Assembly (NCBI GenBank): GCA_035518915.1
Contig: DATIXE010000051.1
Location: 5,314 to 29,313, forward strand
Direction of reading: 5' to 3'
DNA from: Candidatus Eiseniibacteriota bacterium
Lineage (GTDB): Bacteria > Acidobacteriota > Terriglobia > Acidiferrales > UBA7541
Length of the DNA stretch: 24,000 nucleotides
Shown piece by piece: positions 4,611 to 21,561 of this stretch. The position numbers and the translations under genes were made by a program. Each line of letters begins with the position of its first letter. Position 1 is the first letter of the stretch. The notes beneath the pieces are model-generated. The model was not told the DNA's origin. It made no database searches and saw nothing but the letters and a program-made list of their open reading frames with translations.

Positions 4611-4738
4611 GCGGCAATCTTCAGTTTGTGTGCGAACTTTGCGGCGAGATTCTTCGCGCTTTTGCTTTGGGGCTGCCGGAAGAAGATGCAACAAGTTTTT
4701 CAGAACCACTGGACGAGGCGAGGTCCGAACCCAAGAGG

Positions 4739-7252: not shown

Positions 7253-7516
7253 TTAGACCGGTTTTTCGGGGGAAGTGGTTCCTTCCCGCAGGATTCTTTC
7301 CAGTCGCTTGTGCAGGCGCTCGCTGTAGCCCACCGGCAACTCGTAGGTGCGATCATCCGCAGTCAAAACCAGAATATTTCGCGTGGAATCCAAAATGGCG
7401 GAGCACACTTCGCAGTTTTCCAGGTGGTTCTCGATATCCGTGAGCAGGGCGGCATCCAGCTGATGGTCAAGGTACTCGGAGATGTGCTCCCAGACGTGTT
7501 TGCACTCCAGCTTCAT
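7253..7516 (-). CDS. Soluble zinc-binding (ZAS, zf-HC2) anti-sigma factor
   Basis: 87-aa ORF whose ATG overlaps the stop codon of the upstream sigma gene (ATGA). It has an H-x3-C-x2-C motif (HLENCEVC) and a Cys 26 residues upstream of that His. There is no hydrophobic segment. Confidence 0.85.
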   Translation of the reverse strand: MKLECKHVWEHISEYLDHQLDAALLTDIENHLENCEVCSAILDSTRNILVLTADDRTYELPVGYSERLHKRLERILREGTTSPEKPV

Positions 7517-8142
7517 CCGAAGAACCTCCCGAAAAAGCCCTTTCTGGCCGGCACGGCGGTTTTCAAATAAGGAGCCAGAAGCTTCTGCAGCATCATGCGA
7601 GCCCGGTGCAGCCGTACTTTGACCAGATTAATACTTATGCCCAGTGCGGCGGCAGTTTCCACCTGGTTGAGTTCCTCAAGGTCACGCAGGACCAAAACCT
7701 CTCGATAAAGGGGCGGCAGATGGTCCACCGCTTCCCGTAATTTCAATCGCAACTCCTTCTTCTCGAGGGCTGCGGAAGGAATTTCGCGCCAGTCGGTGAG
7801 AACCGCAGGCGTGAAATCCCCTTCCTTCTCCGCGATCATTTCTTCGAGCGAATCCTGAGGGACGAGTTTCGCCCTGCGGAGCCGCTGCCGGGCTTCGTTC
7901 ATGGCGATGGTCACGAGCCAGGTGCTGAATTTCGCATCGCCCCGGAAACCCTTCAAGTGGCGAAAGGCGCTAATCATCACGTCCTGGGCCGCATCCTCCG
8001 CTTCGGCCTCATTCCTCAGCATGGTGAAAACGGTCACGTAGACCAGCTTTTCATAAGGCCGTACGAGTTCATGGAAAAGGTTGGTTTCGCCCGCGAGGAT
8101 GCGGGCGATGAGTTCCTTCTCCTGCTCGGTAGCTGCCGGCAT
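7513..8142 (-). CDS. ECF-family RNA polymerase sigma-70 factor
   Basis: 209-aa ORF. Region 2 is LFHELVRPYEKLVYVTVFTMLRNEAEAEDAAQDVMISAFRHLKGFRGDAKFSTWLVTIAMNEA. Region 4 is LPPLYREVLVLRDLEELNQVETAAALGISINLVKVRLHRARMML. It is translationally coupled to the anti-sigma gene. Confidence 0.93.
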   Translation of the reverse strand: MPAATEQEKELIARILAGETNLFHELVRPYEKLVYVTVFTMLRNEAEAEDAAQDVMISAFRHLKGFRGDAKFSTWLVTIAMNEARQRLRRAKLVPQDSLEEMIAEKEGDFTPAVLTDWREIPSAALEKKELRLKLREAVDHLPPLYREVLVLRDLEELNQVETAAALGISINLVKVRLHRARMMLQKLLAPYLKTAVPARKGFFGRFFG

Positions 8143-8408: not shown

Positions 8409-8873
8409 ATGAGGGCCATAGTGAAAAGAGCGATCGTGCTGACGATGCTGCTTTGGGGATTTCCGGCGCTTCCGCAGGGCGGAAAGACGTTGCAGAACCT
8501 GGATAGAAATGGAGTGGCCATTCAGGGGTACGATCCGGTGGCGTTTTTCACCCAGAACAAGCCCGTGAAGGGGGACAAGCGCTTTGAAAGTACTTACAAG
8601 GGCGCAACGTATTACTTTGTGTCGGGGGAAGACAAAGCGGCCTTCGACGCATCTCCGGGGAAGTACGAGCCTGAGTTCGGAGGATTCTGCGCGTATGGGG
8701 TTTCCAGGGGGAAGCTCGTGCCGGTGGATGTACAAGCATTCCAGATTGTCAACGGCAAGCTGTTACTCCAGTACGACCTCGACATCAAAGAGAAATTCAA
8801 CAAGGACCAGGCCGGCAATCTGGACAAGGCGAACCAGAATTGGCCGCAGCTGGTGGAAAAGAAAGGCCGCTAA
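8409..8873 (+). CDS. YHS-domain-containing exported protein (Cys form of a family I recall as containing selenoprotein members)
   Basis: 154-aa ORF with GGGGAAG before the ATG and the signal peptide MRAIVKRAIVLTMLLWGFPALPQG. It contains AIQGYDPVAFF..KG..YKGATYYFVSGEDKAAFDASPGKYEPEFGGFCAYGV, the typical YHS-domain pattern with a single conserved Cys. Confidence 0.82.
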   Translation: MRAIVKRAIVLTMLLWGFPALPQGGKTLQNLDRNGVAIQGYDPVAFFTQNKPVKGDKRFESTYKGATYYFVSGEDKAAFDASPGKYEPEFGGFCAYGVSRGKLVPVDVQAFQIVNGKLLLQYDLDIKEKFNKDQAGNLDKANQNWPQLVEKKGR

Positions 8874-8930
8874 TTCGAGGGGATCGGCGAAGGCTCGAAC
8901 CGGAGCGCCATCCAATCGGGAGAGGACACG

Positions 8931-9320
8931 ATGGGGACTAGCATTTTGAGCTGGATTTTGCGCCTGATTGCCGCAGTCATTTTGTTACAGACTTTGTTTT
9001 TCAAGTTCACCGGGGCTCCAGAGTCCATCTACATCTTCACAAAGGTGGGGGCCGAGCCTTGGGGGCGCATTGGTTCAGGTATCGTTGAACTTGTCGCGGC
9101 CATACTGCTTCTTTGGCCGCGATTCACTTGGCTCGGTTCGGCTCTGGCGCTGGGGATGATGGCCGGTGCAATCGTGAGTCACCTGACGGTGCTCGGGATT
9201 GAAGTCCAAGGGGATAAGGGGCTCCTGTTCGGGTTGGCACTGACCGTTTTTATTGCCTCGGCCATCAACTTGTTTCTCCATCGAGCGGAAATTCCAGTGA
9301 TCGGCGGGAGGCTGGCATGA
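8931..9320 (+). CDS. DoxX-family membrane protein
   Basis: 129-aa ORF with GGGAGAGGA before the ATG. It has four hydrophobic helices, and ILRLIAAVILLQTLFFKFTG..G..ELVAAILLLWPR..GAIVSHL resembles DoxX/DoxX-like proteins. Confidence 0.78.
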   Translation: MGTSILSWILRLIAAVILLQTLFFKFTGAPESIYIFTKVGAEPWGRIGSGIVELVAAILLLWPRFTWLGSALALGMMAGAIVSHLTVLGIEVQGDKGLLFGLALTVFIASAINLFLHRAEIPVIGGRLA

Positions 9321-9901
9321 ACCGGGCGATGGCAGGCGTGGCGAGAACTCCGGAAGCGGAGCCGGCGGCGGTTGGTTCGGACTTGCCGGAGTTGGTCGCT
9401 GCCGCAGGGGAAGTGCTCCAGCAAGGGCTGAATTTGCTTTCCCGGCTGGACGACGAGAAATATTCACGGATCGCGAGAGACCCCTTTAACGCCTCGGTCG
9501 GCGGGCATTACCGCCATGTGCTGGAACACTTCCAGTGCCTGATCGAAGGGATGTCCCAAAGAGTCGTCAACTACGACGCGCGGCGGAGAAATCCGCGCAT
9601 CGAGAACGAAGTGGGCTATGCGTCCGCTTCCACGGGCGAAGTTTTGAGGATTCTTCGAGGCTGGCGCGGAGAGACATTGCAGCAATCGTGCAAAACAATG
9701 AGTAGCGTCGGGTATCATTCCGGGCTTCCGGCGACAATCGATTCCAACGCCGGGCGAGAACTGGCCTACTGCGCAGCCCATGCGGTACACCATTTCGCCA
9801 TCATCCGCTTGATCTGCAACGAAGTGGGGATTGAAGTCTCCAAGGAATTCGGATACGCGCCTTCGACACTAAAGCACCAATCTTTGCTCGCCGCCGATTA
9901 G
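9317..9901 (+). CDS. Hypothetical cytoplasmic protein, DinB/YfiT-like helical-bundle candidate (His-rich motifs)
   Basis: 194-aa ORF whose ATG overlaps the DoxX stop (ATGA). GGHYRHVLEHFQCLIEG and YCAAHAVHHFAIIRLI look like the spaced His ligands of DinB-superfamily proteins. The assignment is by eye and tentative. Confidence 0.55.
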   Translation: MNRAMAGVARTPEAEPAAVGSDLPELVAAAGEVLQQGLNLLSRLDDEKYSRIARDPFNASVGGHYRHVLEHFQCLIEGMSQRVVNYDARRRNPRIENEVGYASASTGEVLRILRGWRGETLQQSCKTMSSVGYHSGLPATIDSNAGRELAYCAAHAVHHFAIIRLICNEVGIEVSKEFGYAPSTLKHQSLLAAD

Positions 9902-9912
9902 TGGGGAATCGA

Positions 9913-11526
9913 ATGAGCCTCCTGCCGTTACAAGTTAGTGGGAGTGTCGCAACGGCGATTGCCATCATTGTGGGAGCATTCGTCTCCGAGGATGCCGCTA
10001 CGATTACCGCGGCAACTCTAGCTGCGGGCAGCGTACTTGATCCCCGGCTTTCTTTTTTCAGCGCAGCTACTGGCTTGTGGGCGGGTGACCTTGGCGTATA
10101 CGCGGTGGCGCGCATTTGGGGCGAGAAGGCGCGTCGCACCTCGTGGCTGGGGCGCGCGGCCTCCTCGGCCGAGCAGGCGACTGCTGGTACGGCTGGCGGC
10201 TGGGCTTTGGCGCTGAGCCGATTTTTCCCTGGGGCACGGTTGCCCGCGTATGTTGCGGCAGGTCTAAATCGAATGCCGTTTCCTCGTTACGCGGGGATTA
10301 CGGCGCTGACGGCGTCGATCTGGACGTCCATCGTTTTCACCGCGATCTGGTTGTTCCCTGGTCAGGCGCAGACGGCTCGAGAACGGCTTGCGCAGGTAGG
10401 GATGGCGGGTTTGACGATTTTCGGGATTGTGTTTCTTTGGAAACGATTCGGCCATCACTTGCAGTTCTCATTGCGGAATCTCTGGCAGCGCGTGACACGT
10501 TGGGAGTTCTGGCCACCGTGGCTTTTCTACACTCCCGTGGCGTTGATGTGCGCCTGGCTGAGCGCGCGATTCCGCGGCATTTCCCTTCCGACCGTCGCCA
10601 ATCTGAATCAGAAAAACGGCGGGATCATTGGAGAATCCAAATACGAGATCTTGCGCGAACTGATGGAAAGCTCCCCGGAGGCCACGGCCGCCGCTTATTT
10701 GATTCCTGCCGGAGGTGACGAAGTCCGGTTTGGGAGGATTCAGGATCTCCTGGCCCGGCACGAGATTTCGTTCCCCTTCGTCTTGAAACCAGACACGGCG
10801 CAGCGAGGCGCGGGCTTCCGAAAAATCCGTTCGCTGGGCGAAGTGCAGGAATATCTGCAGCGGATTTCGCAGTCGCTGGTTCTGCAAAGATATGTGCAAG
10901 GCCCGCAGGAGGCGGGAATTTTCTATTACCGGTTTCCGGGACAACTTGAGGGGCAGATTTTCGGCATTACCCGAAAACGGTTTCCCGTGCTGGCCGGGGA
11001 TGGAATTCATTCCCTCAAGCAGCTGGTCGAATTGGATGATCGAGCGCGCTTCCTCCGTGGCGTTTACCTGAAACGCCTGGGCGCAGAGGCGAAACGAGTT
11101 CCCGCCGCGGGCGAACTTGTGAGACTGGTGGAAGCCGGAAACCACTGTCAGGGCTGCATCTTTGAGGACGGGTGGGACCTTGATTCCGAGGAGTTGCGCC
11201 GGGCGATGGACCGGATCAGCCTGCCACTGAACGGGTTCTATGTCGGGCGGTTCGACGTGCGTTATACCGATGACGACTCGCTGCGTGCCGGGAAAGGCTT
11301 CCAGGTGATTGAGTTGAATGGGGCTGCCTCGGAAGCCACGAATCTCTACGATGCAAAGAACTCCCTGTGGGCCGCCTATCGCACTCTATACCGCCAGTGG
11401 CGGCTGATTTACGCGATCGGTGCGGAAAATCGGAAGCGCGGTGCGGTGCCGCGCGCGGCGCTCAGTGTCTGGCGCGACTGGCGGGAGTTTTCATCGCATG
11501 CTTGCGAATTCCCTATCGCAGATTGA
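9913..11526 (+). CDS. Fusion protein: N-terminal DedA/VTT (SNARE-associated) membrane domain plus C-terminal ATP-grasp ligase domain
   Basis: I prefer ATG 9913 (GGGGA 5 nt upstream) over GTG 9901. The N-terminal part has FVSEDAATITAATLAAG, GLWAGDLGVYAVARIWG and LSRFFPGARLPAYVAAGLNRMPF (DedA-like), followed by two more TM segments. The C-terminal part has FPFVLKPDTAQRGAGF, LVLQRYV, GDGIHSL and FQVIELNGAASEATNLYD (ATP-grasp carboxylate-amine ligase pattern). Confidence 0.8.
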   Translation: MSLLPLQVSGSVATAIAIIVGAFVSEDAATITAATLAAGSVLDPRLSFFSAATGLWAGDLGVYAVARIWGEKARRTSWLGRAASSAEQATAGTAGGWALALSRFFPGARLPAYVAAGLNRMPFPRYAGITALTASIWTSIVFTAIWLFPGQAQTARERLAQVGMAGLTIFGIVFLWKRFGHHLQFSLRNLWQRVTRWEFWPPWLFYTPVALMCAWLSARFRGISLPTVANLNQKNGGIIGESKYEILRELMESSPEATAAAYLIPAGGDEVRFGRIQDLLARHEISFPFVLKPDTAQRGAGFRKIRSLGEVQEYLQRISQSLVLQRYVQGPQEAGIFYYRFPGQLEGQIFGITRKRFPVLAGDGIHSLKQLVELDDRARFLRGVYLKRLGAEAKRVPAAGELVRLVEAGNHCQGCIFEDGWDLDSEELRRAMDRISLPLNGFYVGRFDVRYTDDDSLRAGKGFQVIELNGAASEATNLYDAKNSLWAAYRTLYRQWRLIYAIGAENRKRGAVPRAALSVWRDWREFSSHACEFPIAD

Positions 11527-11529
11527 GTT

Positions 11530-12279
11530 ATGTGTACTCTGAGCTTTTTGCCGGTACATGGTGGCTACGTGGCGGCGATGAACCGCGATGAAGAGCGCGC
11601 GCGGCCTTTAGCGCTGCTCCCAGCTGTTCATTCAATCGGCGAGTTGAACGCTCTCTACCCCAGGGAAGCTGGCGGGGGGACGTGGATCGGAGCGAACGGC
11701 GCGGGCACTCTATTCGGGCTGCTGAACTGGTATGCCAGAGAAACGGAGAATCTCCCGAAAAAAGCGAGGTCCCGCGGCGAGGTCATTCCGCATCTGCTGG
11801 GAGATCTGGATGCGGCAACTTCGGAACGTGCGTTGTGGCAGCTGGATCTCGAGGGAATCCATCCGTTCCGCTTGATTGGTGTTTATCCCGGGGAGCGGCA
11901 AATCCGGGAATGGCGCTGGGACGCACGGCAGCTGGTCCATAAATCTCATGATTGGGGACGGCAGCACTGGTTCTCCTCCAGCCGTTCCGATACCATCGCG
12001 GAACGGGAGCGCGGAGCGGCGTGCGAACGCACGTGGAGGGGGGAGCCAAACGATCCGGCAATCTGGCTTCGCACGCTGCACTCCGGCCATATCCCCGAGC
12101 CAGGACCGTTTTCAATTTGCGTCCATCGTGCAGACGCGGCTACGGTCAGCTACACGGAAGTGATTTGGGATGGCACCCAACTCCAGATGCGCTACCTGGC
12201 AGGAAATCCTTGCCAAGCCGTGGAAATGCCCGGAGCATGGACGCTCCCTGTTTCCGCCAGCGCGCCGGGACGCGGATAG
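11530..12279 (+). CDS. NRDE-family (TANGO2-like) protein
   Basis: 249-aa ORF starting 3 nt after the previous stop codon. It has the N-terminal MC, the family-defining AMNRDE motif, GGTWIGANGAGTLFGLLN and SRGEVI. Confidence 0.88.
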   Translation: MCTLSFLPVHGGYVAAMNRDEERARPLALLPAVHSIGELNALYPREAGGGTWIGANGAGTLFGLLNWYARETENLPKKARSRGEVIPHLLGDLDAATSERALWQLDLEGIHPFRLIGVYPGERQIREWRWDARQLVHKSHDWGRQHWFSSSRSDTIAERERGAACERTWRGEPNDPAIWLRTLHSGHIPEPGPFSICVHRADAATVSYTEVIWDGTQLQMRYLAGNPCQAVEMPGAWTLPVSASAPGRG

Positions 12280-12293
12280 ACCACCCGGCCAGC

Positions 12294-12323
12294 TGAAACC
12301 TTTTGTCCCTTCGGGACTCTCAT
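12294..12323 (+). promoter_or_regulatory. Candidate ECF-type promoter P2 for the SDR-to-250-aa-protein unit
   Basis: TGAAACCTTTTGTCCCTTCGGGACTCTCAT lies in the 78-nt gap after the NRDE gene. Its first 11 nt are identical to P1, the ACTC box is in the same register, and it ends 34 nt before ATG 12358. Confidence 0.5.
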
Positions 12324-12357
12324 CCGCCAAGGAGAGTTCCGGGAAGGATTGGCGTCC

Positions 12358-13047
12358 ATGAAAGACAAGGTTGTTTTCATCACCGGCGCGAATGGAGGAC
12401 TCGGAGGTTCCGTAACGCGGGCATTTTTGCAAGCAGGCGCGAGAGTCATTGGGAGCTCGCTGCGCATCACTGCTGCGGACTTTCCGGAACCCAATTTTGA
12501 AGCCATGAGAATGGACTTCAATCAGCTTGAAGAGATTCGCCGCGGGGTGAGCAAACTTATTGAGCGATATGGCCGATTAGACGTGCTAGTGCACGTGCTG
12601 GGCGGATTCGCCGGCGGCCCCACGGTGGCGGAAACTCCCGATTCCATGTGGGAACAGATGCAGGGTCTTAATCTGACGGCCGCGTTTAAGGTATTCCGCG
12701 AATGCATTCCGCATCTTCGGAAGTCCGGGGCTGGCAGGCTTATCGCGATCGGCAGCTTGACGGCGGCGCAGCCGCACGCCCATCTGGGAGCGTACGTGGT
12801 CTCGAAGGCCGCGCTTGCGATGCTGGTGCGAACGGTTGCGCTGGAAAACGCCGACGCTAGCTTGACTGCGAATGTAATTCTGCCTGGAACGATGGATACT
12901 CCCGCAAACAGAAAATCCATGCCCGACGCAGATTTTTCAAAATGGGTGAAGACGCGGGATGTTGCGGAAATCGTATTGTCGCTGGCAGGCGAAGGCGGAA
13001 AGCATCTCACGGGCCTAGAAATCCCCATCGAGGGCGGACATGGCTGA
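12358..13047 (+). CDS. Short-chain dehydrogenase/reductase (SDR) family oxidoreductase
   Basis: It has VVFITGANGGLGGSV (TGxxxGxG), an NVL-type region, S..YVVSKAAL (YxxxK) and PGTMDTP. I prefer ATG 12358 (GGAAGGA upstream) to the TTG at 12349 given in the ORF track. Confidence 0.9.
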   Translation: MKDKVVFITGANGGLGGSVTRAFLQAGARVIGSSLRITAADFPEPNFEAMRMDFNQLEEIRRGVSKLIERYGRLDVLVHVLGGFAGGPTVAETPDSMWEQMQGLNLTAAFKVFRECIPHLRKSGAGRLIAIGSLTAAQPHAHLGAYVVSKAALAMLVRTVALENADASLTANVILPGTMDTPANRKSMPDADFSKWVKTRDVAEIVLSLAGEGGKHLTGLEIPIEGGHG

Positions 13048-13282
13048 ACGTGTCGCCGGATGGGTGATCTGGGGCATGTACACCTATGTGCTGGCCGGAA
13101 GTATTTTTGCGGGATGTTTTGTTGCTCGCGGCGTGCAGAAGGTGGATTCGGAGGCGCGAAGTGCAGGGATCGGCTTTCGATTGCTGATTTTTCCCGGAGC
13201 GGTGGCGTTCTGGGCTCTATTACTGAAGCGGTGGGTCGCAGCGGCGGGTGAACCGCCGGGAGAGAGGAACCCGCACCAATGA
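13040..13282 (+). CDS. Small membrane protein (80 aa, 2 predicted TM segments), unknown function
   Basis: Its ATG overlaps the SDR stop codon by 8 nt (ATGGCTGA). It has two hydrophobic helices (WVIWGMYTYVLAGSIFAGCFV and FRLLIFPGAVAFWALLL). Third codon positions are G/C-rich in this frame. Confidence 0.65.
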   Translation: MAERVAGWVIWGMYTYVLAGSIFAGCFVARGVQKVDSEARSAGIGFRLLIFPGAVAFWALLLKRWVAAAGEPPGERNPHQ

Positions 13283-13479
13283 TTCAGCCGCTCCGAACCG
13301 TGCATCGGCAAGTGTTCCTGTTGCTCACGCTGGCGCTTCCCCTCTTGTTTGTCGCGGGGATTCGGGCGCGGCACTGGGTGCTGACGCCGAAACCCGAATC
13401 CGGACAGCGCGCTCTTGCGGCGCCGAAGACGCGGAAGGAATTGGCCGCCACGGCTGCTCGCGGAGAGGGGCGGCCGTGA
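13279..13479 (+). CDS. Small membrane protein (66 aa, 1 predicted TM segment), unknown function
   Basis: It has an ATGA overlap with the previous gene and a GTGA overlap with the next. The TM helix is VFLLLTLALPLLFVAGI. Third-position G/C bias favours this frame over the competing 13248 frame. Confidence 0.55.
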   Translation: MIQPLRTVHRQVFLLLTLALPLLFVAGIRARHWVLTPKPESGQRALAAPKTRKELAATAARGEGRP

Positions 13480-14516
13480 GTCACGGATATGTGGCAGTCG
13501 GATGGAACGCGCAGAAGCGCGGGTACGATGTGACACTGGCGTGTGGAGTAATTTTGTACGTTGGAACTTTTGTCGGGCTAAGCGCAGTGCTGTATCCAAC
13601 GGCGACTGCGGAAACGCTTCTGATCCGCGCCTTGGGGTCCTGCGCATTTCTGATGCTCAATGTCGTGTTGTGCATTGGTCCGCTCTGCCGCCTGGATTCG
13701 AGATTTCTGCCGCTTCTCTATAACCGGCGGCATCTAGGCGTGACGACATTTCTTCTGGGCCTGGGACATGGCGCTTTCGGACTGATTCAATTTCACAGGC
13801 TGGGAAACATGGATCCCCTGCTCAGCCTGTTCACCGCAAATCGAAATTATTTCAGCCTGGCCGATTTCCCGTTTCAGCCGCTTGGTTTTCTGGCCTTAAT
13901 CATCCTGTTCCTGATGGCGGCCACGAGTCATGACTTCTGGTTGCGCAACCTGACGCCTCCCGTCTGGAAGAGCTTGCACATGCTGGTCTATTTGGCTTAC
14001 GCGCTGCTGGTGGCTCACGTCACTCTGGGACTGTTGCAATCGGAACGGAGCCGATGGCTAGTGGGAGCAATGGCGATCAGTTTGTCCGCCGTAATTTCGC
14101 TGCACCTGGCCGCGGCGCTGCGTGAGCGGAAAACGGACGATGCGAGACTCTCGCCCAGCGGCACGGGCTACTTGGCTGCATGCCCAGTCGAGGAAATCCC
14201 CGAAAAATACGCAAAAGTCGTTTCCGTTCATGGGGAGCGGGTGGCGATCTTCAAATTCGATGGGAAGATCTGCGCGCTTTCCAACGTCTGCCGGCACCAG
14301 AATGGCCCGCTGGGCGAGGGAAAGATCGTGGACGGTTGCGTGACGTGTCCATGGCACGGGTATCAATATTTGCCGGAATCCGGCGCTTCGCCGCCACCAT
14401 TCACCGAGAAGGTCTCCACGTTTCGGACGAAGCTCGCGGATGGCATGGTCTGGCTGGACCCGAATCCTCTGCCGCCGGGAAGTCGTGTGGAACCATCCAG
14501 GATTGAAAGCGTCTGA
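13476..14516 (+). CDS. Fusion protein: ferric-reductase-like (MsrQ/YedZ-type, dihaem b) 6-TM domain plus C-terminal Rieske [2Fe-2S] domain
   Basis: I chose GTG 13476 (GTGA coupling) because the ORF-track start at 13248 adds an Arg/Ala-rich, non-membrane extension that overlaps the two mini genes. There are six TM segments with conserved His residues (RRHLGV, LGLGHGAF, TSHDFW, SLHMLVYLAYALLVAHV). The C-terminus has CRHQNGPL...CPWHGYQY, which is the Rieske C-x-H / C-x2-H pair. Confidence 0.85.
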   Translation: MSHGYVAVGWNAQKRGYDVTLACGVILYVGTFVGLSAVLYPTATAETLLIRALGSCAFLMLNVVLCIGPLCRLDSRFLPLLYNRRHLGVTTFLLGLGHGAFGLIQFHRLGNMDPLLSLFTANRNYFSLADFPFQPLGFLALIILFLMAATSHDFWLRNLTPPVWKSLHMLVYLAYALLVAHVTLGLLQSERSRWLVGAMAISLSAVISLHLAAALRERKTDDARLSPSGTGYLAACPVEEIPEKYAKVVSVHGERVAIFKFDGKICALSNVCRHQNGPLGEGKIVDGCVTCPWHGYQYLPESGASPPPFTEKVSTFRTKLADGMVWLDPNPLPPGSRVEPSRIESV

Positions 14517-14525
14517 GGGATACGC

Positions 14526-15278
14526 ATGAAGGAGTTTTACATCGGGTATCTGCCCAGCGCTCCGCCCGCGATTCGCAGGCGCGTGGGGATTCTTGTGGGA
14601 CTAATTGTTCTGTTTGGCGTTGCCAGCGGGGCCTTGTTTGCGGTTGCCCAAAGCGGATTCGCGAAATCCTATTTTGAATTCGGAAAGCCAAGGGAATTTA
14701 CCGGAGTGCTGCGCCGGCACCCGTTTCCTACGTTGGTTGCGGACGACACGATTCGCGAAGGAAGTTCCTCGCCTTCCGTTTATCTTCTGGTGGCTCCCGG
14801 GAAATTTGGGGCCGATTCTCTCGTGGGCGGCAAGGATGATTGGCATGTCCGGCTGCGGGGAACGCGGATCCATCGCACGGAAGGGGAAATGATCGAGATC
14901 GAACCCGGATCCATTGTGGAAACGCCAGACTCGCGAACTTCCGCATCCCTGGAACGCGATTTGGGATATGCGCGACTATCGGGCGAGATCGTGGACACGA
15001 AATGCTACCTGGGCGTGATGAATCCTGGTGAAGGGAAAGTGCACCGTGAATGCGCAGCCCTGTGCTTAAGGGGCGGCATCCCTCCGGCTCTGGTTTCTTC
15101 AGATTTAGATGGCAAGCCGCGACTGTTTATCCTGATTGGTCCAGAGGGCGAACCGATGGCTAAAGAGGATTACTTACAACGCGTTGGACAGCCAGTTTCG
15201 ATGGAAGGCCGCATCGTGGAGAAGGATCAACTCTATTATCTGCAAGCCGATCCAGCCAGCATCGTGGCGCTTCCATAG
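14526..15278 (+). CDS. N-terminally membrane-anchored protein of unknown function with C-x12-H-x2-C-x3-C motif
   Basis: 250-aa ORF with GAGGGA 5 nt before the ATG. It has a single N-terminal TM segment (RRRVGILVGLIVLFGVASGALFAV). The C-terminal region GEIVDTKCYLGVMNPGEGKVHRECAALCLRGGIPP..GQPVSMEGRIVEKDQLYYL resembles the 109-aa secreted protein at 2312-2641. Confidence 0.75.
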   Translation: MKEFYIGYLPSAPPAIRRRVGILVGLIVLFGVASGALFAVAQSGFAKSYFEFGKPREFTGVLRRHPFPTLVADDTIREGSSSPSVYLLVAPGKFGADSLVGGKDDWHVRLRGTRIHRTEGEMIEIEPGSIVETPDSRTSASLERDLGYARLSGEIVDTKCYLGVMNPGEGKVHRECAALCLRGGIPPALVSSDLDGKPRLFILIGPEGEPMAKEDYLQRVGQPVSMEGRIVEKDQLYYLQADPASIVALP

Positions 15279-15293
15279 CTCCCTGCAGTTCCC

Positions 15294-15323
15294 GGAAACC
15301 TTTTCGATTCCCGCCACTCAAAT
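15294..15323 (+). promoter_or_regulatory. Candidate ECF-type promoter P3 for the DUF1223 gene
   Basis: GGAAACCTTTTCGATTCCCGCCACTCAAAT shares GAAACCTTTTCG and CCACTC with P1 in identical register. It ends 48 nt upstream of the TTG start at 15372. Confidence 0.45.
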
Positions 15324-15371
15324 GGAAGCTGGCTTGGTTCCTCGGCCGGCAGCATCAGGGAGGTAACTATC

Positions 15372-16196
15372 TTGATTCCGAATCTAGTACGCTCACCGTT
15401 GGTTTACGCTTCGGTCGTTGGAACCTTAGGATTGCTCGCACTTTTCCAGTTCGGCCGGAACACCAATGCGAAGGGGACCTTGCCAAGCGGCACCGCGACG
15501 GGGCCGGTACTGGTGGAGCTATTCACTTCCGAAGGATGCTCGAGTTGCCCACCAGCGGATGCTTTGTTGAAGCACTTGAGCGAACAACAGCCCGCAGATG
15601 GGATCCGGATCGTGGCGCTTGAAGAACATGTGGACTACTGGAATCACCTTGGCTGGGCGGATCCTTTTTCGTCGAGTGAATTTTCCGAACGGCAGAACGC
15701 GTATGCCGAGACCTTTGGTCGCGACGGGGTCTATACGCCGCAGATGGTAGTGGACGGGCAATTCGAGTTTGTGGGGAGCCGCAGCGGCGCCGCGCGCGAC
15801 GCCATTCGGAAGGCTGCCGCAGAACCGAAGCTGAATGTCGCGCTCACTCTGAGTGGAAGCGCCACGACGGAAGCACCGGTCGTAGACATACAGATCAGCA
15901 ATGCGAGCGGAGTTGTTCCTCATGGCGAATCGATGCTCTGGCTGGCGATTACGGAAAAGAATCTGCAATCCGACGTGAAGGCCGGAGAAAACTCAGGAGA
16001 ACTCTTGAAGCACGCCGACGTGGTCCGAAGTCTGCGAAAAGTGACCGCGCTCCCCGTGCCTATCAATTACAAGGCGCAGGTGAAGCTATCGCTCAACTCC
16101 AAATGGAATCGAGATAGTCTCACGGCGGTTGCATTCGTGGCAGAGCAAGAGTCGCGCCGGATTATCGGCGCGGGCACGGTGGCCCTGCATCGTTGA
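15372..16196 (+). CDS. DUF1223-family thioredoxin-like protein (CxxC), exported or membrane-anchored
   Basis: 274-aa ORF with a TTG start and GGGAGG 8 nt upstream. It has a hydrophobic N-terminus. VLVELFTSEGCSSCPPAD, EEHVDYWNHLGWADPFSS, FSERQNAYA and VYTPQMVVDG are the characteristic DUF1223 motifs. Confidence 0.85.
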   Translation: MIPNLVRSPLVYASVVGTLGLLALFQFGRNTNAKGTLPSGTATGPVLVELFTSEGCSSCPPADALLKHLSEQQPADGIRIVALEEHVDYWNHLGWADPFSSSEFSERQNAYAETFGRDGVYTPQMVVDGQFEFVGSRSGAARDAIRKAAAEPKLNVALTLSGSATTEAPVVDIQISNASGVVPHGESMLWLAITEKNLQSDVKAGENSGELLKHADVVRSLRKVTALPVPINYKAQVKLSLNSKWNRDSLTAVAFVAEQESRRIIGAGTVALHR

Positions 16197-17222: not shown

Positions 17223-17384
17223 ATGCCACGGTTCAAGCTTGTAACTGATTGATACTAAGGCAGGTAGGTGGCTTGTTGTAATGCCTCTGCGGGCGCTTGG
17301 GCCAGATGACCCATTCGGCGTGGAATTTCACGCTTTGCGCGAGTGCCGCCGGTTTCTGGCCTTGGGCGAGAACACTTGCCCCCG

Positions 17385-17413
17385 TTGGGGAGCATTGGGG
17401 CCAGTGGTATTAT
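17385..17413 (+). promoter_or_regulatory. Candidate sigma-70-type extended -10 promoter that would give a leaderless kinase mRNA
   Basis: TTGGGG (17385-17390), then 17 nt ending in TGg, then TATTAT (17408-17413). The -10 hexamer ends 7 nt before ATG 17421, and there is no Shine-Dalgarno sequence in front of that ATG. Confidence 0.3.
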
Positions 17414-17420
17414 CCTCAGG

Positions 17421-18707
17421 ATGTCCGCGCCCGAGCCGACTCGTTTGCCGTTGGAAAGCTTCGTCGACGAGATGAAGCGGTATCTTCATCTGTTGCCCGA
17501 GGATGCCGCGCTGCTGAAGGAACTTCGTCCGCTCATGGAAAAATACCTTCCGGAAATGGCGGAGAGGTTTTATGCGCAGATTCCCCATCATCCGGGAGCG
17601 AGCCGGGTATTCACTGGCGGCGAAGCGCAGGTGCAGCGCCTTAAATCGACCTTACAGGTTTGGGGCCGCGGTCTGTTCAACGGCGTATACGACGAAGACT
17701 ATGCCGAGGACCGGTATCGCATCGGCTTCCGCCACGTGCGGATCACCCTCGATCAGAAATACGTTATCAGCGCCATGGGCGTGGTGCGGGCGTTCCTGAT
17801 GGAAAAGCTTTTCGACGAGTTTCCGGCGCGCGAGCAGCGGCTGGCCTACTCGCAGGCGCTCGGGAAAATCCTGGATCTCGACCTCAACCTGATGTGCGAT
17901 TCGTATTTCCGCGCTACGATGGCGCACCTGCACACGCTCAATCAGGAACTGGAACAGGCGAGCGCGCAGCTTGCCGAAGCCAACGCAATCAAGGATGAGT
18001 TCCTCGCGCAAGTGTCCCACGACCTGCGCACGCCGCTAAACTCCATCCTGAGTTTTACCAAGATGGTTCTGGACGGGTTTTGCCGGGACCCGGAAGAGGA
18101 AAAGGAGGTACTGCGCGACGTTTTTAGTAGCGGACAGTTACTACTGCGGCTGGTAAATGATCTGTTGGACATTTCGGCGATCGAAGCGGGCAAGCTGGCT
18201 CTGGATCTCGAGGAAATCGAGCCACGTACGGTGTTGGATTCGACATTGCCGCTGGTGGCCATTCAAGCCGCCTCCAAGAATATCCGACTGATTGACGAGA
18301 CGCTGGATCAGACGCTACCGACAGTCAAGAGCGACGAGATCCGTTTTCGCCAGGTGCTTCTGAATTTGCTTTCGAACGCAGTGAAGTTCACGGCGCAAGG
18401 ATATGTGCTGGTCCGGGCGTTACATAATAAACACGAACGGCATTTGCGAATCGAGATTGAAGACACGGGGATCGGTGTTCCGATAGAGAAACGCAACGTT
18501 GTATTCGAAAAATTTGTGCGGCACGACCCGAAAGCGCTGCGTGGAGTCACCGGTTCGGGCCTGGGGTTGGCTATCGCCAAGAGACTTGTTGAAATGATGC
18601 AAGGAAAGATTGGATTGGAGGCCGGGCCAGGAGGTAAAGGCTCCGTCGTGTGGTTTACGCTGCCGCTGGCGACACCCATGTCGACGCCGGAGGCACCCGA
18701 CCGGTGA
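17421..18707 (+). CDS. Globin-coupled sensor histidine kinase (protoglobin/sensor-globin domain + HisKA + HATPase_c)
   Basis: The N-terminal domain aligns by eye with HemAT-type sensor globins: MAERFYAQI (distal Tyr), VQRLKSTLQVWGRGLFNGVYDEDYAEDRYRIGFRHVRITLDQKYVISAM (proximal His in RHVRI). It is followed by a coiled coil, the H-box FLAQVSHDLRTPLNSI, the N-box LLNLLSNAVKF, and the G-boxes DTGIGV and GSGLGLAI. I prefer ATG 17421 to GTG 17343. Confidence 0.88.
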   Translation: MSAPEPTRLPLESFVDEMKRYLHLLPEDAALLKELRPLMEKYLPEMAERFYAQIPHHPGASRVFTGGEAQVQRLKSTLQVWGRGLFNGVYDEDYAEDRYRIGFRHVRITLDQKYVISAMGVVRAFLMEKLFDEFPAREQRLAYSQALGKILDLDLNLMCDSYFRATMAHLHTLNQELEQASAQLAEANAIKDEFLAQVSHDLRTPLNSILSFTKMVLDGFCRDPEEEKEVLRDVFSSGQLLLRLVNDLLDISAIEAGKLALDLEEIEPRTVLDSTLPLVAIQAASKNIRLIDETLDQTLPTVKSDEIRFRQVLLNLLSNAVKFTAQGYVLVRALHNKHERHLRIEIEDTGIGVPIEKRNVVFEKFVRHDPKALRGVTGSGLGLAIAKRLVEMMQGKIGLEAGPGGKGSVVWFTLPLATPMSTPEAPDR

Positions 18708-19126
18708 ACCGAGATACGCAACCCTTGCGCGGGAACCGCATCCTCATTGTGGAGGATAATGCCTTGGTGGCCAAATTCTTCCGCATGGCTCTGGAACGCG
18801 CAGGGGGATGCGAGTGCATCATCTCCGAGGACGTTCCTGAGATTCTCAGCCATGTTGCTGCAGGAGAAGTCGACCTGGTTTTGCTAGACGTGTCGCTAAC
18901 GAATTCGGAGTGGAAAGGCCAGGCGATTAACGGCATCGAGCTTTGCCGCCTACTGAAAGAGAGATCAACTCGACGATTGCCGGTGCTGCTGGCCACGGCG
19001 CACGCAATGAGTGGCGACCGCGAACGTTTTCTGGAATCCTCCGGCGCGGACGGATATCTTGAAAAGCCGGTGTACGATTCCTCTGTGCTCGTCGAGAAGG
19101 TCCGCAGCCTCATCAACCCCTCCTGA
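18704..19126 (+). CDS. Single-domain response regulator (receiver only)
   Basis: GTG 18704 overlaps the kinase stop codon (GTGA). The receiver features are RILIVEDN, DLVLLDVSL (phospho-acceptor Asp), LPVLLATAH and GYLEKP. Confidence 0.87.
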   Translation: MNRDTQPLRGNRILIVEDNALVAKFFRMALERAGGCECIISEDVPEILSHVAAGEVDLVLLDVSLTNSEWKGQAINGIELCRLLKERSTRRLPVLLATAHAMSGDRERFLESSGADGYLEKPVYDSSVLVEKVRSLINPS

Positions 19127-19263: not shown

Positions 19264-21561
19264 ATGCTGGCCGTTCCAGTATTGTTACTTCTAGGCCTCG
19301 ATCTGTTGATTTTCATCGCGGCAGGTCTCCTCTGGGATATTTCTCCTCAGAAAAAAGAAAACCTCCTGCTTTCCGGCCTGTTCCTGTGTTCTGGAATGCC
19401 TGCGCTGATATACCAGGTGGTTTGGCAACGCGCGCTGTTCGCGATCTATGGGGTGAACGCCGAATCTGTGGCCGCGGTTGTCAGCGCGTTCATGTTGGGA
19501 TTGGGTCTGGGCGGGCTGCTTGGCGGATGGCTTTCTTCGCGGTTCCCCAGACTGGCGCTCATCTTGTTCGGTTTGTCGGAGCTAGGCGTCGCCGTATTCG
19601 GTCTGCTGTCGCTGCGGATCTTCCATTGGGTCGCCACGCTCACCGCAGGCGCTGGCTTGCCCTCGGTAATCGTATTTTCCATTCTTCTCCTGATATTTCC
19701 CACTCTCCTGATGGGAGCGACACTGCCGTTGCTGGTAGAACATTTCGTCTCGCGTTCCGGGCGAGTTGGTCTTTCCGTTTCGCGGCTGTACTTCGCCAAT
19801 ACCCTAGGTTCCGCGATTGCCTGCTACGTTTGCGCGACTTTTCTATTGCGTGCTTTCGGTCAGAGTGGTTCGGTCACGATGGCAGCCTGTCTGAACACCA
19901 TAGTTGGCGCTTCCGCTTATCTCTACGGGCGTCGCGCCCAGGCTCAAGGGCAGGTTGTCCATGAATTCGCCTCCGAAACAGCGGGAGCGCCTCCTGCGAT
20001 TAAGCTGCCGACCGCCCTGCTGCTGGCCGCCCTCTCCGGTTTCCTGGGTCTTGGATTCGAAATCGTCTGGTTTCGTGTGTTTTCACTGGCTTCCTCCGAT
20101 CGTGCCCCGGCTTTTGCCTTGCTCCTGGCGACCTATCTTGGAGGAATTGCAGCTGGCGCTTACGTGTCCGAGAAATTAACGGAGCGCGCCGACTCGCAGG
20201 ACGTATTACGCACGATGGGAATTCTGTTGCTGGCTTCTGGAGCGCTATCTCCATTCCTTCCGCCGATGGTGGCCCAGCTCGTACACAGAAACATTTCCTA
20301 TCTCTGGAGCGCGCCAGCCTTTTTCGCCATCGCCGCGATGACCGGAAGCGTGCTACCGCTCCTCTGTCAGGTTTCTGTTGCTGCCGATAAGGAAGCTGGG
20401 CGCCACGTGAGCCTGATCTATGCTGCAAACATTGCGGGCGCGGTTGCCGGTAGCCTGGGGATCGGGTTCGCATGGCTACAAGTCTTCGGATTGCGCGCGG
20501 TGTGTTTGCAGCTCGCGGCGCTGGGCGCGATCACAGGCGTCATCGTCCTCTGCTTGGCTCAACAAGCCAATTTCCGGAAACCGGCCTGGATCTGGGGATT
20601 GGTTCTAGTGTGCTTCACTCTGATTCCTCTTGCAGAGGGACAATATCATTTGCTTTTTGAACGGCTCATTTTTGGAGATCGTCCAGAATCCGGGTTGGAT
20701 TTCGCGCACATCGTGGAAGGACGGAATGGGGTCATCTGTGTTACGGGAGACGGCGCCGTCTTCGGCGAGGGAGTGTATGACGGGCATTTCAATATCAACC
20801 CCCTACATGATGTGAATTATGTCGTTCGTGCCTATGCCGTCCTCGGAGTGCATCCATCACCGAAGCGCATGCTGATGATTGGGCTGGCGTCCGGTTCCTG
20901 GGGGCAAATCTTTGCGAATGATCCGCGAGTTTCGCATTTCGACGTCGTGGAAATCAATCCAGGCTACCTCAAGCTGATTCCACAATACGCTGCAATTCGA
21001 TCGTTACTTTCAAACCCAAAAGTGAGCGTATACATTGACGACGGCCGGAGATGGGTGATAGCCCATCCAAATGAAAAATACGACCTTATCGTCGTAAACT
21101 CGACCTATCACTGGAGAAATCACAGCACAACGCTGCTTTCCAGAGAGTTTCTTCGATTGATTCGGCAACACCTGAATCCTGGCGGGATCTATTATTTCAA
21201 CACGACGGAATCGAACGAATCGATGGCCACGGCGCTGAGCGTGTTTCCTCACGGTTTGCGGATCATAAACTTCCTGGCCGTGAGCGATTCTCCGATCGCT
21301 CTGGACCGCGAACGGTGGCTTCAGGAAATGATCGCGTTCCGCATTGACAACGACGAAGTGTTTAAGCCAGAGGCACCGGAAGGACAGAGAGTTCTTGCGG
21401 CGTATAGCGCGCTTGCAGAGACGGTTCACGCGCCCCCCCGCTTCCTCAGCCTGGAGAGCGGAGCCTCCTTGCGCGCACGGCTCGGGAGCTTGAGGATCAT
21501 CACCGATGACAATATGGGAAGCGAATGGGAGTCCAGGAGTGAGATGCCCTGGCGTCAATGA
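19264..21561 (+). CDS. Fused polytopic membrane domain / spermidine-synthase-like (class I methyltransferase fold) protein
   Basis: 765-aa ORF. The N-terminal two thirds are multi-TM with PALIYQVVWQRALFAIYGVNAESVAAVVSAFMLGLGLGG and a second EIVWFRVFSLA repeat. The C-terminus has MLMIGLASGSWGQ, DVVEINPGY, VYIDDGRRWV, YDLIVVNST and LNPGGIYYFNTT, as in SpeE-like aminopropyltransferases. Confidence 0.87.
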   Translation: MLAVPVLLLLGLDLLIFIAAGLLWDISPQKKENLLLSGLFLCSGMPALIYQVVWQRALFAIYGVNAESVAAVVSAFMLGLGLGGLLGGWLSSRFPRLALILFGLSELGVAVFGLLSLRIFHWVATLTAGAGLPSVIVFSILLLIFPTLLMGATLPLLVEHFVSRSGRVGLSVSRLYFANTLGSAIACYVCATFLLRAFGQSGSVTMAACLNTIVGASAYLYGRRAQAQGQVVHEFASETAGAPPAIKLPTALLLAALSGFLGLGFEIVWFRVFSLASSDRAPAFALLLATYLGGIAAGAYVSEKLTERADSQDVLRTMGILLLASGALSPFLPPMVAQLVHRNISYLWSAPAFFAIAAMTGSVLPLLCQVSVAADKEAGRHVSLIYAANIAGAVAGSLGIGFAWLQVFGLRAVCLQLAALGAITGVIVLCLAQQANFRKPAWIWGLVLVCFTLIPLAEGQYHLLFERLIFGDRPESGLDFAHIVEGRNGVICVTGDGAVFGEGVYDGHFNINPLHDVNYVVRAYAVLGVHPSPKRMLMIGLASGSWGQIFANDPRVSHFDVVEINPGYLKLIPQYAAIRSLLSNPKVSVYIDDGRRWVIAHPNEKYDLIVVNSTYHWRNHSTTLLSREFLRLIRQHLNPGGIYYFNTTESNESMATALSVFPHGLRIINFLAVSDSPIALDRERWLQEMIAFRIDNDEVFKPEAPEGQRVLAAYSALAETVHAPPRFLSLESGASLRARLGSLRIITDDNMGSEWESRSEMPWRQ

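Follow-up and report, generated by a model that had tools for sequence, protein, structure and literature searches.

A conserved four-gene module with a ferric-reductase-domain-Rieske protein and a membrane-anchored Cys/His protein: a candidate route for electrons across the inner membrane

Few routes are known by which bacteria supply reducing power to the periplasm, namely DsbD/CcdA, MsrQ, and the NapH-like, PepSY-like and Nqr/Rnf-like systems. Here we consider a gene module from a 24,000-nucleotide stretch of DNA of a Candidatus Eiseniibacteriota bacterium (contig DATIXE010000051.1, positions 5,314 to 29,313), further referred to as the window. The central protein of the module, FRD-Rieske, joins a transmembrane ferric-reductase domain (FRD) to a C-terminal Rieske domain; upstream of its gene lie two genes of small membrane proteins, m80 and a middle gene, and downstream the gene of a membrane-anchored Cys/His protein, p250. 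The module is widespread and uncharacterised, and three of the four proteins cannot be placed in any known family.

According to the survey of FRD proteins by Zhang et al. 2013 (PLoS One 8:e58126; PMC3591440), YedZ, or MsrQ, of E. coli is the sole characterised bacterial FRD member. MsrQ has one haem b at the periplasmic side and FMN in a cytosolic pocket (R77, R78, H151, W147, L131, S135), R77 taking the place of the haem-binding His of NOX (2025 FEBS J; PMC12525009). It is fed by the soluble flavin reductase Fre and passes electrons to an adjacently encoded periplasmic partner, MsrP, the pair (MsrPQ) serving to repair methionine sulfoxide in the periplasm. The same survey places the His residues of the canonical FRD 14 residues apart in transmembrane helix (TM) 3 (H101/H115) and 13 apart in TM5 (H209/H222), describes the replacement of a His by Arg as the signature of the YedZ/STEAP group, and catalogues the FRD-plus-Rieske architecture as 'M4'; there it is listed alone, without m80, the middle gene, p250, the fusion described below, an MsrQ-type pocket or a function (PMC3591440). 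STEAP1-4, which have a single outer haem and a flavin site on the inner side, fall in this FRD subgroup too, and STEAP1 and STEAP2 were the sole FRD structures matched in a sequence search of the PDB (E 0.002-0.03); unlike the module, they are eukaryotic, have an N-terminal NADPH/F420-type domain, use FAD and reduce free metal ions directly, with neither a Rieske domain nor a p250-like partner. The flavinylation-associated MsrQ-like systems (Meheust et al. 2021; PMC8238504) share the modular use of PF01794 conduits between a cytosolic donor, either fused or encoded alongside, and an extracytosolic acceptor, but they are mainly actinobacterial, and none of the Pfam domains defining them was found in the window genes scanned, which places the module outside that class.

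Our literature search for the module and for combinations of Rieske, FRD, DoxX, TANGO2 and YHS, with subscription-only papers outside its reach, yielded just the 2013 architecture catalogue. The principle of an FRD electron conduit is familiar. For the four-gene module, the p250 family, the FRD-Rieske-p250 fusion and the Rieske-tagged flavoenzymes encoded next to the module, the searchable literature gave no description; a characterised example, of which the original prediction from the window sequence also knew none, was not found there either.

The window protein had been proposed to be an FRD-Rieske fusion with six TM helices and four His residues placed as in dihaem-b proteins, and the first part of this proposal stands. 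Pfam Ferric_reduct (PF01794) matches residues 53-179 (E 5.8e-13, 49.4 bits with the cut-off at 28) and Rieske (PF00355) residues 234-303 (E 5.4e-16, 58.7 bits with the cut-off at 20.3), domains being assigned throughout with Pfam and NCBIfam. Six helices precede the Rieske domain in the AlphaFold2 (AF2) model of the related protein P0058. The closest 120 relatives all have the same two domains and are mostly 344-356 amino acids (aa) long, the remainder being a few longer calls and fusions.

The dihaem part of the proposal does not agree with the alignment at the canonical His position. Among 39 diverse FRD-Rieske-p250 fusions (alignment A4, to which all counts out of 39 refer), the position 14 residues before H98, where the first canonical TM3 His would stand, is occupied by R84 in 39/39 sequences; H86 is just 12 residues before H98, and the TM5 pair H168/H181 is present. 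In a scripted mapping of the E. coli MsrQ sequence (from NC_000913) onto the family, R77, R78, H91, L131, S135, W147, H151 and H164 of MsrQ correspond to R84, R85, H98, M147, S151, W164, H168 and H181, respectively. Seven of these eight residues, all but M147, are conserved in 38-39 of the 39 sequences; position 147, for which the six-sequence alignment A5 was the sole one used, is M or L, so that the eight cofactor residues are either conserved or conservatively replaced, and the inner-pocket residues are identical to those of MsrQ except M147. The surface-proximal haem pair H98 (TM3) and H181 (TM5) is found in 39/39. The family also has invariants of its own, H86, H152, D153 and W155, with H152-D153-x-W155 at the cytoplasmic end of TM4; the five His residues, R84, R85, D153, W155 and W164 all reach 38-39/39.

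By these sequence criteria the module fits the YedZ/STEAP subgroup and not MsrQ proper. Apart from the six-TM FRD and the Arg in place of the first haem His, FRD-Rieske differs from E. coli MsrQ in many respects: the identity is 23%, the score with the NCBIfam model NF003831 is 37.6 bits, the cut-off being 130, the C-terminus carries a Rieske domain where MsrQ relies on Fre, and the module adds the four family-specific residues, a TM-anchored Cys/His beta-barrel partner and two small membrane subunits. MsrP (Oxidored_molyb) was not found among the Pfam-scanned window genes and the subset of recurrent neighbour clusters that was annotated. The FRD is of the MsrQ/STEAP type, and the dihaem assignment is probably wrong; H98 and H181 are the predicted ligands of an outer haem b, and R84, R85, M147, S151, W164 and H168 would form an inner flavin pocket. 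A flavin in this pocket together with one haem is, in our estimate, somewhat better than an even bet. Two haems, with H86 and H168 binding the second one, seem about half as probable, as the two-residue offset of H86 would point it to another face of the helix; an inner pocket with neither flavin nor second haem takes up the small remainder.

The Rieske ligands C272, H274, C291 and H294 are conserved in 39/39, as the original prediction needed them to be. Rieske proteins of the high-potential bc1/b6f type have CTHLGC...CPCHGS boxes, an extra disulfide Cys pair and a Tat (twin-arginine translocation) signal anchor; this domain is not of that type, as its boxes read CRHQNG...CPWHGY and it follows six TM helices, with no N-terminal Tat signal. 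The best PDB sequence matches are CarAc (E 4.8e-15), NdoA-type and BphA3 proteins (range E 5e-15 to 1e-10), and the fold matches the dioxygenase ferredoxins CarAc and BphA3 (Foldseek TM-score 0.84-0.89, root-mean-square deviation about 2 Å). The Rieske ferredoxins (CarAc, BphA3, T4moC) and NirD are the best sequence and fold matches, sharing the CxH...CPWHG motif of low-potential shuttles; they are, however, soluble proteins shuttling electrons from reductase to oxygenase, whereas the domain considered here is fixed at the membrane by its fusion to a haem protein, and there is no oxygenase.

The last protein of the proposed electron path within the module is p250, for which 1196 homologues were detected. 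There is no Pfam or NCBIfam model for it: a Pfam search with 28 members gave only weak DUF4131, DUF4431 and DUF5818 matches, the p250 profile matched no PDB sequence, and Foldseek gave weak matches in the PDB to the OB (oligonucleotide/oligosaccharide-binding) fold. The AF2 model (mean pLDDT 82.9) consists of a long TM helix (about residues 20-40) and two OB-like beta-barrels, the second of which is interrupted by two short helices that bear the Cys/His residues. A search with this C-terminal Cys/His barrel alone returned truncated or frameshifted family members and no new architectures. Among the 28 members (43-60% identity), M1, F4, G7, Y8 and P13 of the N-terminus, which is predicted to be cytoplasmic, are invariant. 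Also invariant is the site G153-E-I-V-D157-x-K159-C160-x-x-G-V-M165-N-P167...V172-H173-R174-x-C176-A-x-x-C180-x-x-G-G-x-P, and with it the residues C160, H173, C176 and C180 to which the earlier reading of an N-terminally anchored 250-aa protein had drawn attention. In the 39 diverse fusions, C160, H173, C176 and M165 are invariant, while D157 and C180 are conserved in at least 90%. A c-type haem was rejected, as there is no CxxCH; judging from its residues, the site would be either a transition-metal (Cu, Fe or Zn) site or a set of redox-active thiols.

The N-terminus of p250 is basic ahead of the TM helix (IRRRV), and a twin-arginine precedes this helix in 24/28 close relatives, but in only 9/32 diverse fusions. 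We hence rejected Tat-dependent export of a cofactor-loaded p250 as a feature of the family. The same count separates the module from the haem-MoCo (molybdenum cofactor) proteins of the Sco3746 type, which are MsrQ-MsrP fusions (Tooke et al. 2017; PMC5449189) and in which an FRD-type membrane haem domain is likewise joined via an extra TM helix to an extracytoplasmic partner: there the partner is a MoCo protein and a conserved twin-arginine stands before the last TM helix, while here the partner is a beta-barrel and the module does not qualify for the dual Sec/Tat class of polytopic proteins.

That the two proteins belong together is seen from their fusion. Of the best 150 family representatives, about 37 are single FRD-Rieske-p250 polypeptides of 583-668 aa, in which FRD-Rieske is followed by a linker, an FYVGYLP motif, a TM helix and then p250 with its GEIVDxKC...H..C...C; two close relatives, P0058 and P0087 (72-73% identity), are built in this way as well. 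In the genome loci, the two proteins form one open reading frame (ORF) in 7 of the 82 loci considered for this count, including loci of Acidobacteriota and Planctomycetota. The AF2 model of P0058, built on the alignment of the 39 fusions, reached a mean pLDDT of 88.5 and a pTM of 0.88. It has TM helices at residues 12-39, 45-73, 84-107, 134-148, 161-184 and 193-222, the Rieske fold at 226-340, a seventh TM helix at 367-394 and two beta-barrels at 401-602. Since the Rieske and p250 domains of the model have a single TM helix between them, they must be on opposite sides of the membrane. The fusions, as read from sequence, support a functional coupling of FRD-Rieske and p250 as parts of one machine.

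As to which domain faces which side, R84 and R85 align with R77 and R78 at the cytosolic face of MsrQ (PMC12525009). Lys and Arg residues near the helix ends, counted from the sequence with the AF2 helix limits, number 12 on the predicted inner side (K14, R15, R72, R76, R84, R85, R157, K165, R216, R218, K219, R224) and 5 on the outer one (R51, R108, R122, R190, R192), a signal that is weak with strict loop limits. Together with the single helix between the domains, this agrees with the orientation proposed before, and we infer that the Rieske domain is cytoplasmic and the Cys/His domain of p250 faces outward.

FRD-Rieske relatives are numerous: at least 8000 are found at E ≤ 1e-5 in a collection clustered at 90% identity, and among cluster representatives at 50% identity there are 6409 matches at E ≤ 1e-3 and 273 at E ≤ 1e-30, while a scan of one genome per GTDB species gave at least 598 stretches with a relative. 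For the gene neighbourhood we used 85 related loci (81 without duplicates), whose six-frame ORFs were searched with the window proteins by BLASTP. Upstream of the FRD gene, 81/85 loci encode an m80 homologue, and immediately downstream of it 82/85 encode a p250 homologue, always on the strand of the FRD gene; of the three loci that lack p250, L070 and L074 are contigs that end just past the FRD gene. The middle ORF, with an N-terminal x-P-L-R-x-x-H-R-x-x-W motif followed by one TM helix, is present in 70 of the 79 loci considered. The conserved unit therefore comprises four genes, m80, the middle gene, FRD-Rieske and p250. The two mini-genes, as had been foreseen, are conserved, but the five-gene module of the original prediction is reduced by its first member, a short-chain dehydrogenase/reductase (SDR) gene, found near the module in 27/81 loci.

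The 81 loci cover at least seven phyla, and the 80 best come from Acidobacteriota, Bacteroidota, Planctomycetota, Verrucomicrobiota, Gemmatimonadota, Rhodothermia, Kiritimatiellae and KSB1. The module is present in hundreds of species, among them soil and marine Acidobacteriota, Bacteroidota, Planctomycetota, Verrucomicrobiota and Gemmatimonadota, and the hosts include the cultured Flagellimonas flava DSM 22638, F. aquimarina, Pseudotenacibaculum haliotis, Spongiimicrobium salis and Engelhardtia mirabilis Pla133. The nearest loci by FRD-Rieske identity are L006, from an Acidobacteriota metagenome-assembled genome (76%), and L007, from a Candidatus Acidoferrum one (73%). The NCBI record P0121, whose p250 is 100% identical to that of the window, is labelled Candidatus Eisenbacteria; given the Acidobacteriota assignment of the nearest loci, one of the taxonomic labels may be wrong.

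The small proteins differ in how much can be said of them. m80 has no Pfam or NCBIfam match. Its G20 and W58 are invariant in 80/80 sequences, and D36 (79/80), F27 and P52 (78/80 each) and Y16 (77/80) nearly so. As the 80 sequences contain no conserved His or Cys, m80 is probably a structural subunit. In the window, residue 59 of m80 (13214-13216), directly after the invariant Trp58, is Ala, while 75/80 homologues have Pro. Depending on the locus, about 80 to 730 nt lie between m80 and the FRD gene. The middle gene occurs in a short form (28 loci, 31-81 aa, with 66 aa in the window) and a long form (42 loci, at least 100 aa from the motif, ORFs listed at 126-192 aa); the long ORFs have an extra C-terminal beta-rich domain with a 'PDLLVYW' motif. 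With its N-terminal M-I-x-P-L-R-x-x-H-R and one TM helix, the 66-aa gene is, by sequence, the short form of this family, and its basic tail is not conserved. Both m80 and the middle protein would serve as accessory subunits.

The original prediction assigned the NAD(P)H input to the SDR. SDRs pass hydride to substrates and hold no flavin, Fe-S cluster, haem or other one-electron cofactor, and since, in addition, about two thirds of the loci have no adjacent SDR, this input is unlikely. Better donor candidates are found elsewhere. In 15 loci, from Bacteroidota, Planctomycetota, Verrucomicrobiota and Rhodothermia plus one from Acidobacteriota, the module is adjoined by genes of large, predicted cytoplasmic enzymes with an N-terminal Rieske domain. 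They are of three types: Rieske plus TPP_enzyme_N/M/C (about 650 aa; among the NCBIfam models pyruvate oxidase scores highest, with 418 bits, which is below its cut-off), Rieske plus Glu_synthase/FMN_dh, that is, GltS-like (about 550 aa), and Rieske plus NADPH-dependent FMN reductase (L067). Compared with the Rieske domain of FRD-Rieske, theirs show 31-42% (TPP type) and 22-28% (GltS type) identity. In Flagellimonas flava, the module is preceded, in this order, by genes of an extracytoplasmic function (ECF) sigma factor, a 105-aa protein, a Metal_resist-like protein, a Rieske-GltS-like enzyme, a Na/H exchanger and a Rieske-pyruvate-oxidase-like enzyme, and the four module genes are followed by YHS, LysE, DinB-like, TANGO2 and ATP-grasp genes. 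We know of no characterised enzymes with these Rieske-flavoenzyme architectures; they are probably the best donor candidates in the other phyla.

Taken together, the association of the genes, the fusion, the topology of the model, the sidedness, the cofactor residues, the donor neighbours and the genomic context (ECF sigma, YHS, DoxX) support an outward path for single electrons through one inner-membrane complex of m80, the middle protein, FRD-Rieske and p250, to which we give a probability of roughly 55%. A cytoplasmic donor would reduce the fused low-potential Rieske [2Fe-2S] domain; the electron would then move to the inner pocket, most likely to a flavin held by R84, R85, S151, W164 and H168 and less likely to a second haem bound via H86, further to the outer haem b at H98/H181, and from there to the membrane-anchored p250 site (D157, C160, H173, C176 and C180, with M165). 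Finally, p250 would pass it to a periplasmic acceptor, for which the YHS protein, the CxxC protein with a DUF1223 domain and a metal ion are the nearby candidates.

Several observations weigh against such a path. The YHS, DoxX and DUF1223 genes are missing from most loci, and none of them encodes an obligatory partner; the Pfam scan of the window revealed neither a Rieske-flavoenzyme nor another obvious reductase. As the twin-arginine is not conserved, the outward domain of p250 is probably exported unfolded and hence unlikely to hold an Fe-S cluster assembled in the cytoplasm, and its Cys/His residues could bind Zn in a purely structural role. The outward direction is itself assumed by analogy with MsrQ, STEAP and NOX.

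Of the competing explanations, the one that survives best, although we regard it as unlikely, is a metal reductase of the STEAP/FRE kind, in which periplasmic Cu2+ or Fe3+ would be reduced and p250 would bind or present the metal instead of relaying electrons. STEAPs, the closest structural class with Arg for His, are ferric and cupric reductases (Zhang et al. 2013; PMC3591440). The ligand spacing of p250, D-x2-C-x15-C-x3-C, to which a His and a Met are added, resembles the YHS/TRASH metal site D178-x2-C181-x22-C204-x3-C208 of the Cu-sensing cyclase of M. phlei (PMC4626032), YHS-domain genes recur by the module, and the Metal_resist-like protein in the Flagellimonas locus, though a weak match, would fit. 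However, none of the 28 p250 members matched the Pfam profiles YHS (PF04945) or TRASH at E up to 1, so that the resemblance is one of spacing pattern and we treat it as a lead and not as membership; the neighbouring YHS proteins belong to a Cys/Sec subfamily without the TRASH cysteine set, and no metal transporter is consistently linked among the neighbour clusters annotated.

The YHS protein of the window (NF041384, 140.5 bits with the cut-off at 70) starts with a stretch resembling a signal peptide, and its residue at the GxU site is Cys94 (GGFCAYG). An exchange of Cys and selenocysteine (Sec) at a position marks a redox-active residue. The GxU site is the selenocysteine site of the NF041384 family (PMC13188914), and this family was first described as one of selenoproteins in 2007 (PMC1976440); no function of the NF041384 YHS family is known. 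Homologues occur in 25/85 loci, directly after p250 in three of them (L015, and L055 and L079 from Flagellimonas). Because of this position and of Cys94 at the GxU site, the protein is a candidate periplasmic acceptor with a predicted redox Cys for the outward path. The DUF1223 protein, which has a hydrophobic segment at the N-terminus and contains C-S-S-C (in EGCSSCPP), is present in 6/85 loci and is a lineage-specific accessory, possibly a thioredoxin-like periplasmic protein judging from these features.

Reversing the path is improbable. In this case a periplasmic reductant would be oxidised at p250 and the electrons would reach cytoplasmic Rieske-tagged enzymes, for instance, the GltS-like reductase, whose type of FMN domain normally uses up reducing equivalents; the sequence in itself does not fix the direction. 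Against this, the characterised FRD proteins, NOX, FRE, STEAP and MsrQ, all work outward (PMC3591440; PMC12525009), the two other kinds of linked Rieske-flavoenzyme, the pyruvate-oxidase-like one and the NADPH-dependent FMN reductase, are of donor types, and a low-potential dioxygenase-type Rieske domain would be a poor sink for haem b.

Marginally less credible still is the idea closest to the original one, a dihaem-b wire with four His residues that is fed NAD(P)H electrons by the overlapping SDR as part of a five-gene unit. It could call on the 8-nt overlap of the SDR stop with the m80 start, on the spread of the nearby SDR genes over three phyla (clustering gives 15 loci in Acidobacteriota, 10 in Bacteroidota, 1 in Planctomycetota and one with an uncertain label), and on the invariant H86 and H168, which could in principle bind an inner haem. 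It has to be set against R84 at the canonical inner TM3 position, with H86 shifted by two residues to what would be the other side of the helix, the retained FMN-pocket residues of MsrQ, which has one haem and FMN (PMC12525009), the SDR family's lack of a flavin, Fe-S cluster or haem, and the conserved core of four genes. The weakest proposal is that the module is no catalytic wire and instead senses redox state or metals, or assists assembly, in association with an ECF sigma/anti-sigma pair: an ECF sigma gene lies within 9 kb in 21/85 loci, with an adjacent zf-HC2 anti-sigma gene in L001 and L004, and a protoglobin sensor kinase is encoded nearby in the window, but most loci have no sigma factor nearby, and the full set of haem, flavin-pocket and Rieske ligands together with the linkage to catabolic flavoenzymes fits sustained electron transfer better.

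More tentatively, and in our view with odds clearly below even, the module would represent a broad, hitherto unrecognised class of electron export, in which cytoplasmic catabolic flavoenzymes with a Rieske plug of their own dock on the Rieske domain of the FRD protein and p250 keeps periplasmic Cys/Sec proteins or metals reduced in envelope stress. In that case it would act alongside DsbD and MsrPQ as a counterpart that uses haem and needs no quinone, and the p250, m80 and middle-gene families and the Rieske-tagged flavoenzymes would receive a first function. Once worked out, the module would offer another route for periplasmic reducing power, a testable partner for the orphan YHS selenoprotein family, and a reason why flavoenzymes of these phyla bear an N-terminal Rieske domain. 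The cultured hosts make the module tractable, and the natural single-chain fusions suit spectroscopy and cryo-EM.

In the window, the module is embedded in an array of eleven co-directional genes (8409-16196, plus strand) with overlaps or very short gaps (Table 1). The ORFs lie where they had been placed before, and the chain of overlaps claimed for them is there: the junctions, read directly, are ATGGCTGA between SDR and m80 (8-nt overlap), ATGA between m80 and the 66-aa gene and GTGA between the latter and FRD-Rieske (4-nt overlaps each), followed by a gap of 9 nt to p250. GA-rich runs similar to Shine-Dalgarno sequences stand upstream of the starts. Scans of the window gave 0 promoters, which is the chance level, and 12 terminator-like sites with 12.1 expected, again the chance level; an Rfam search of the window revealed no riboswitch or other RNA. 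A 422-aa reading of FRD-Rieske, starting at 13248, was rejected, as the start of most homologues, which are 343-356 aa long, corresponds to 13476. The database calls P0011 (418 aa) and P0055 (444 aa) extend FRD-Rieske by 70-100 codons upstream; the extension crosses the middle gene in another frame and is not conserved.

Table 1. Positions of the genes and domains in the window; in the last four rows, Rieske-flavoenzyme genes with positions in the loci named.
Feature	Position	Strand	Basis or remark
ECF sigma factor	7513-8142	-	Pfam Sigma70_r2/r4_2; divergent from the array
YHS-domain (seleno)protein homologue, secreted	8409-8873	+	NCBIfam NF041384
DoxX	8931-9320	+	Pfam
DinB_2 protein	9317-9901	+	Pfam
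VTT/DedA + ATP-grasp fusion	9901-11526	+	Pfam
TANGO2	11530-12279	+	Pfam
SDR, FabG-like, accessory gene	12349-13047	+	Pfam adh_short, E 9e-36
m80, 80-aa membrane protein with two hydrophobic segments; first core gene	13040-13282	+	
66-aa single-TM protein, short form of the middle gene	13279-13479	+	
FRD-Rieske, 346 aa, GTG start	13476-14516	+	Pfam Ferric_reduct, Rieske
Transmembrane FRD, aa 12-222	13509-14141	+	MsrQ mapping
Rieske domain, aa 226-340	14151-14495	+	C272-x-H274-x16-C291-x2-H294, CPWHG type
p250, 250-aa protein	14526-15278	+	1196 homologues
Conserved Cys/His site of p250	14994-15065	+	Alignment of 28 homologues
DUF1223 protein, last of the co-directional array	15372-16196	+	Pfam DUF1223, E 2.7e-60
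Rieske-flavoenzymes, L079	6478-8430 (pyruvate-oxidase-like) and 3529-5202		
Rieske-flavoenzymes, L050	5678-8146 and 4134-6071		
Rieske-flavoenzymes, L056	8747-10840 and 3633-5276		
Rieske-flavoenzyme, L067	6968-8251		

Beyond the core, a second set of genes, DoxX, DinB, VTT/ATP-grasp, TANGO2 and YHS, is found near the module in 24-34 of the 85 loci from several phyla; its varying order and orientation argue for a functional link and not for inherited synteny. An unbiased clustering of all genes within 9 kb of the module, for which some clusters were annotated, revealed further recurrent neighbours in both Acidobacteriota and Bacteroidota: Acetyltransf_5 (OlsB-like acetyltransferases of the GNAT family; 20 loci), GMC oxidoreductase (16), MIP channel (14), GDE (glycogen-debranching enzyme; 13) and a GH63/MGH-like hydrolase (13); a few Bacteroidota loci also share a Na/H exchanger. 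Together, these genes point to a larger supercluster, or island, connected with stress. The ECF sigma-F regulon of Caulobacter, which is induced by chromate and cadmium and comprises the MsrP homologue YedY and a DoxX protein (PMC3511200), may serve as a loose precedent for such gene sets in envelope stress; its response to heavy metals would suit the metal-reductase explanation as well.

The product of the VTT/ATP-grasp gene in the window is a 541-aa protein with an N-terminal VTT/DedA membrane domain and a C-terminal ligase-like domain of the ATP-grasp kind (weak cyanophycin-synthetase- and Ddl-like matches); in Flagellimonas the ATP-grasp part is a separate protein of 347 aa. The TANGO2 protein starts with M-C-T-L-S-F, and its Cys2 would presumably suit an N-terminal-nucleophile hydrolase fold. 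Downstream of the array, the histidine kinase with a protoglobin sensor domain (17343-18707; Protoglobin + HisKA + HATPase_c) is followed by a response regulator (18650-19126); the pair is kept downstream in L001-L003 and represents a haem-based gas or redox sensor by the cluster. Further on, at 19264-21561, lies the gene of a 765-aa fusion protein, in which a membrane domain similar to the major facilitator superfamily is joined to a spermidine-synthase/methyltransferase-like domain.

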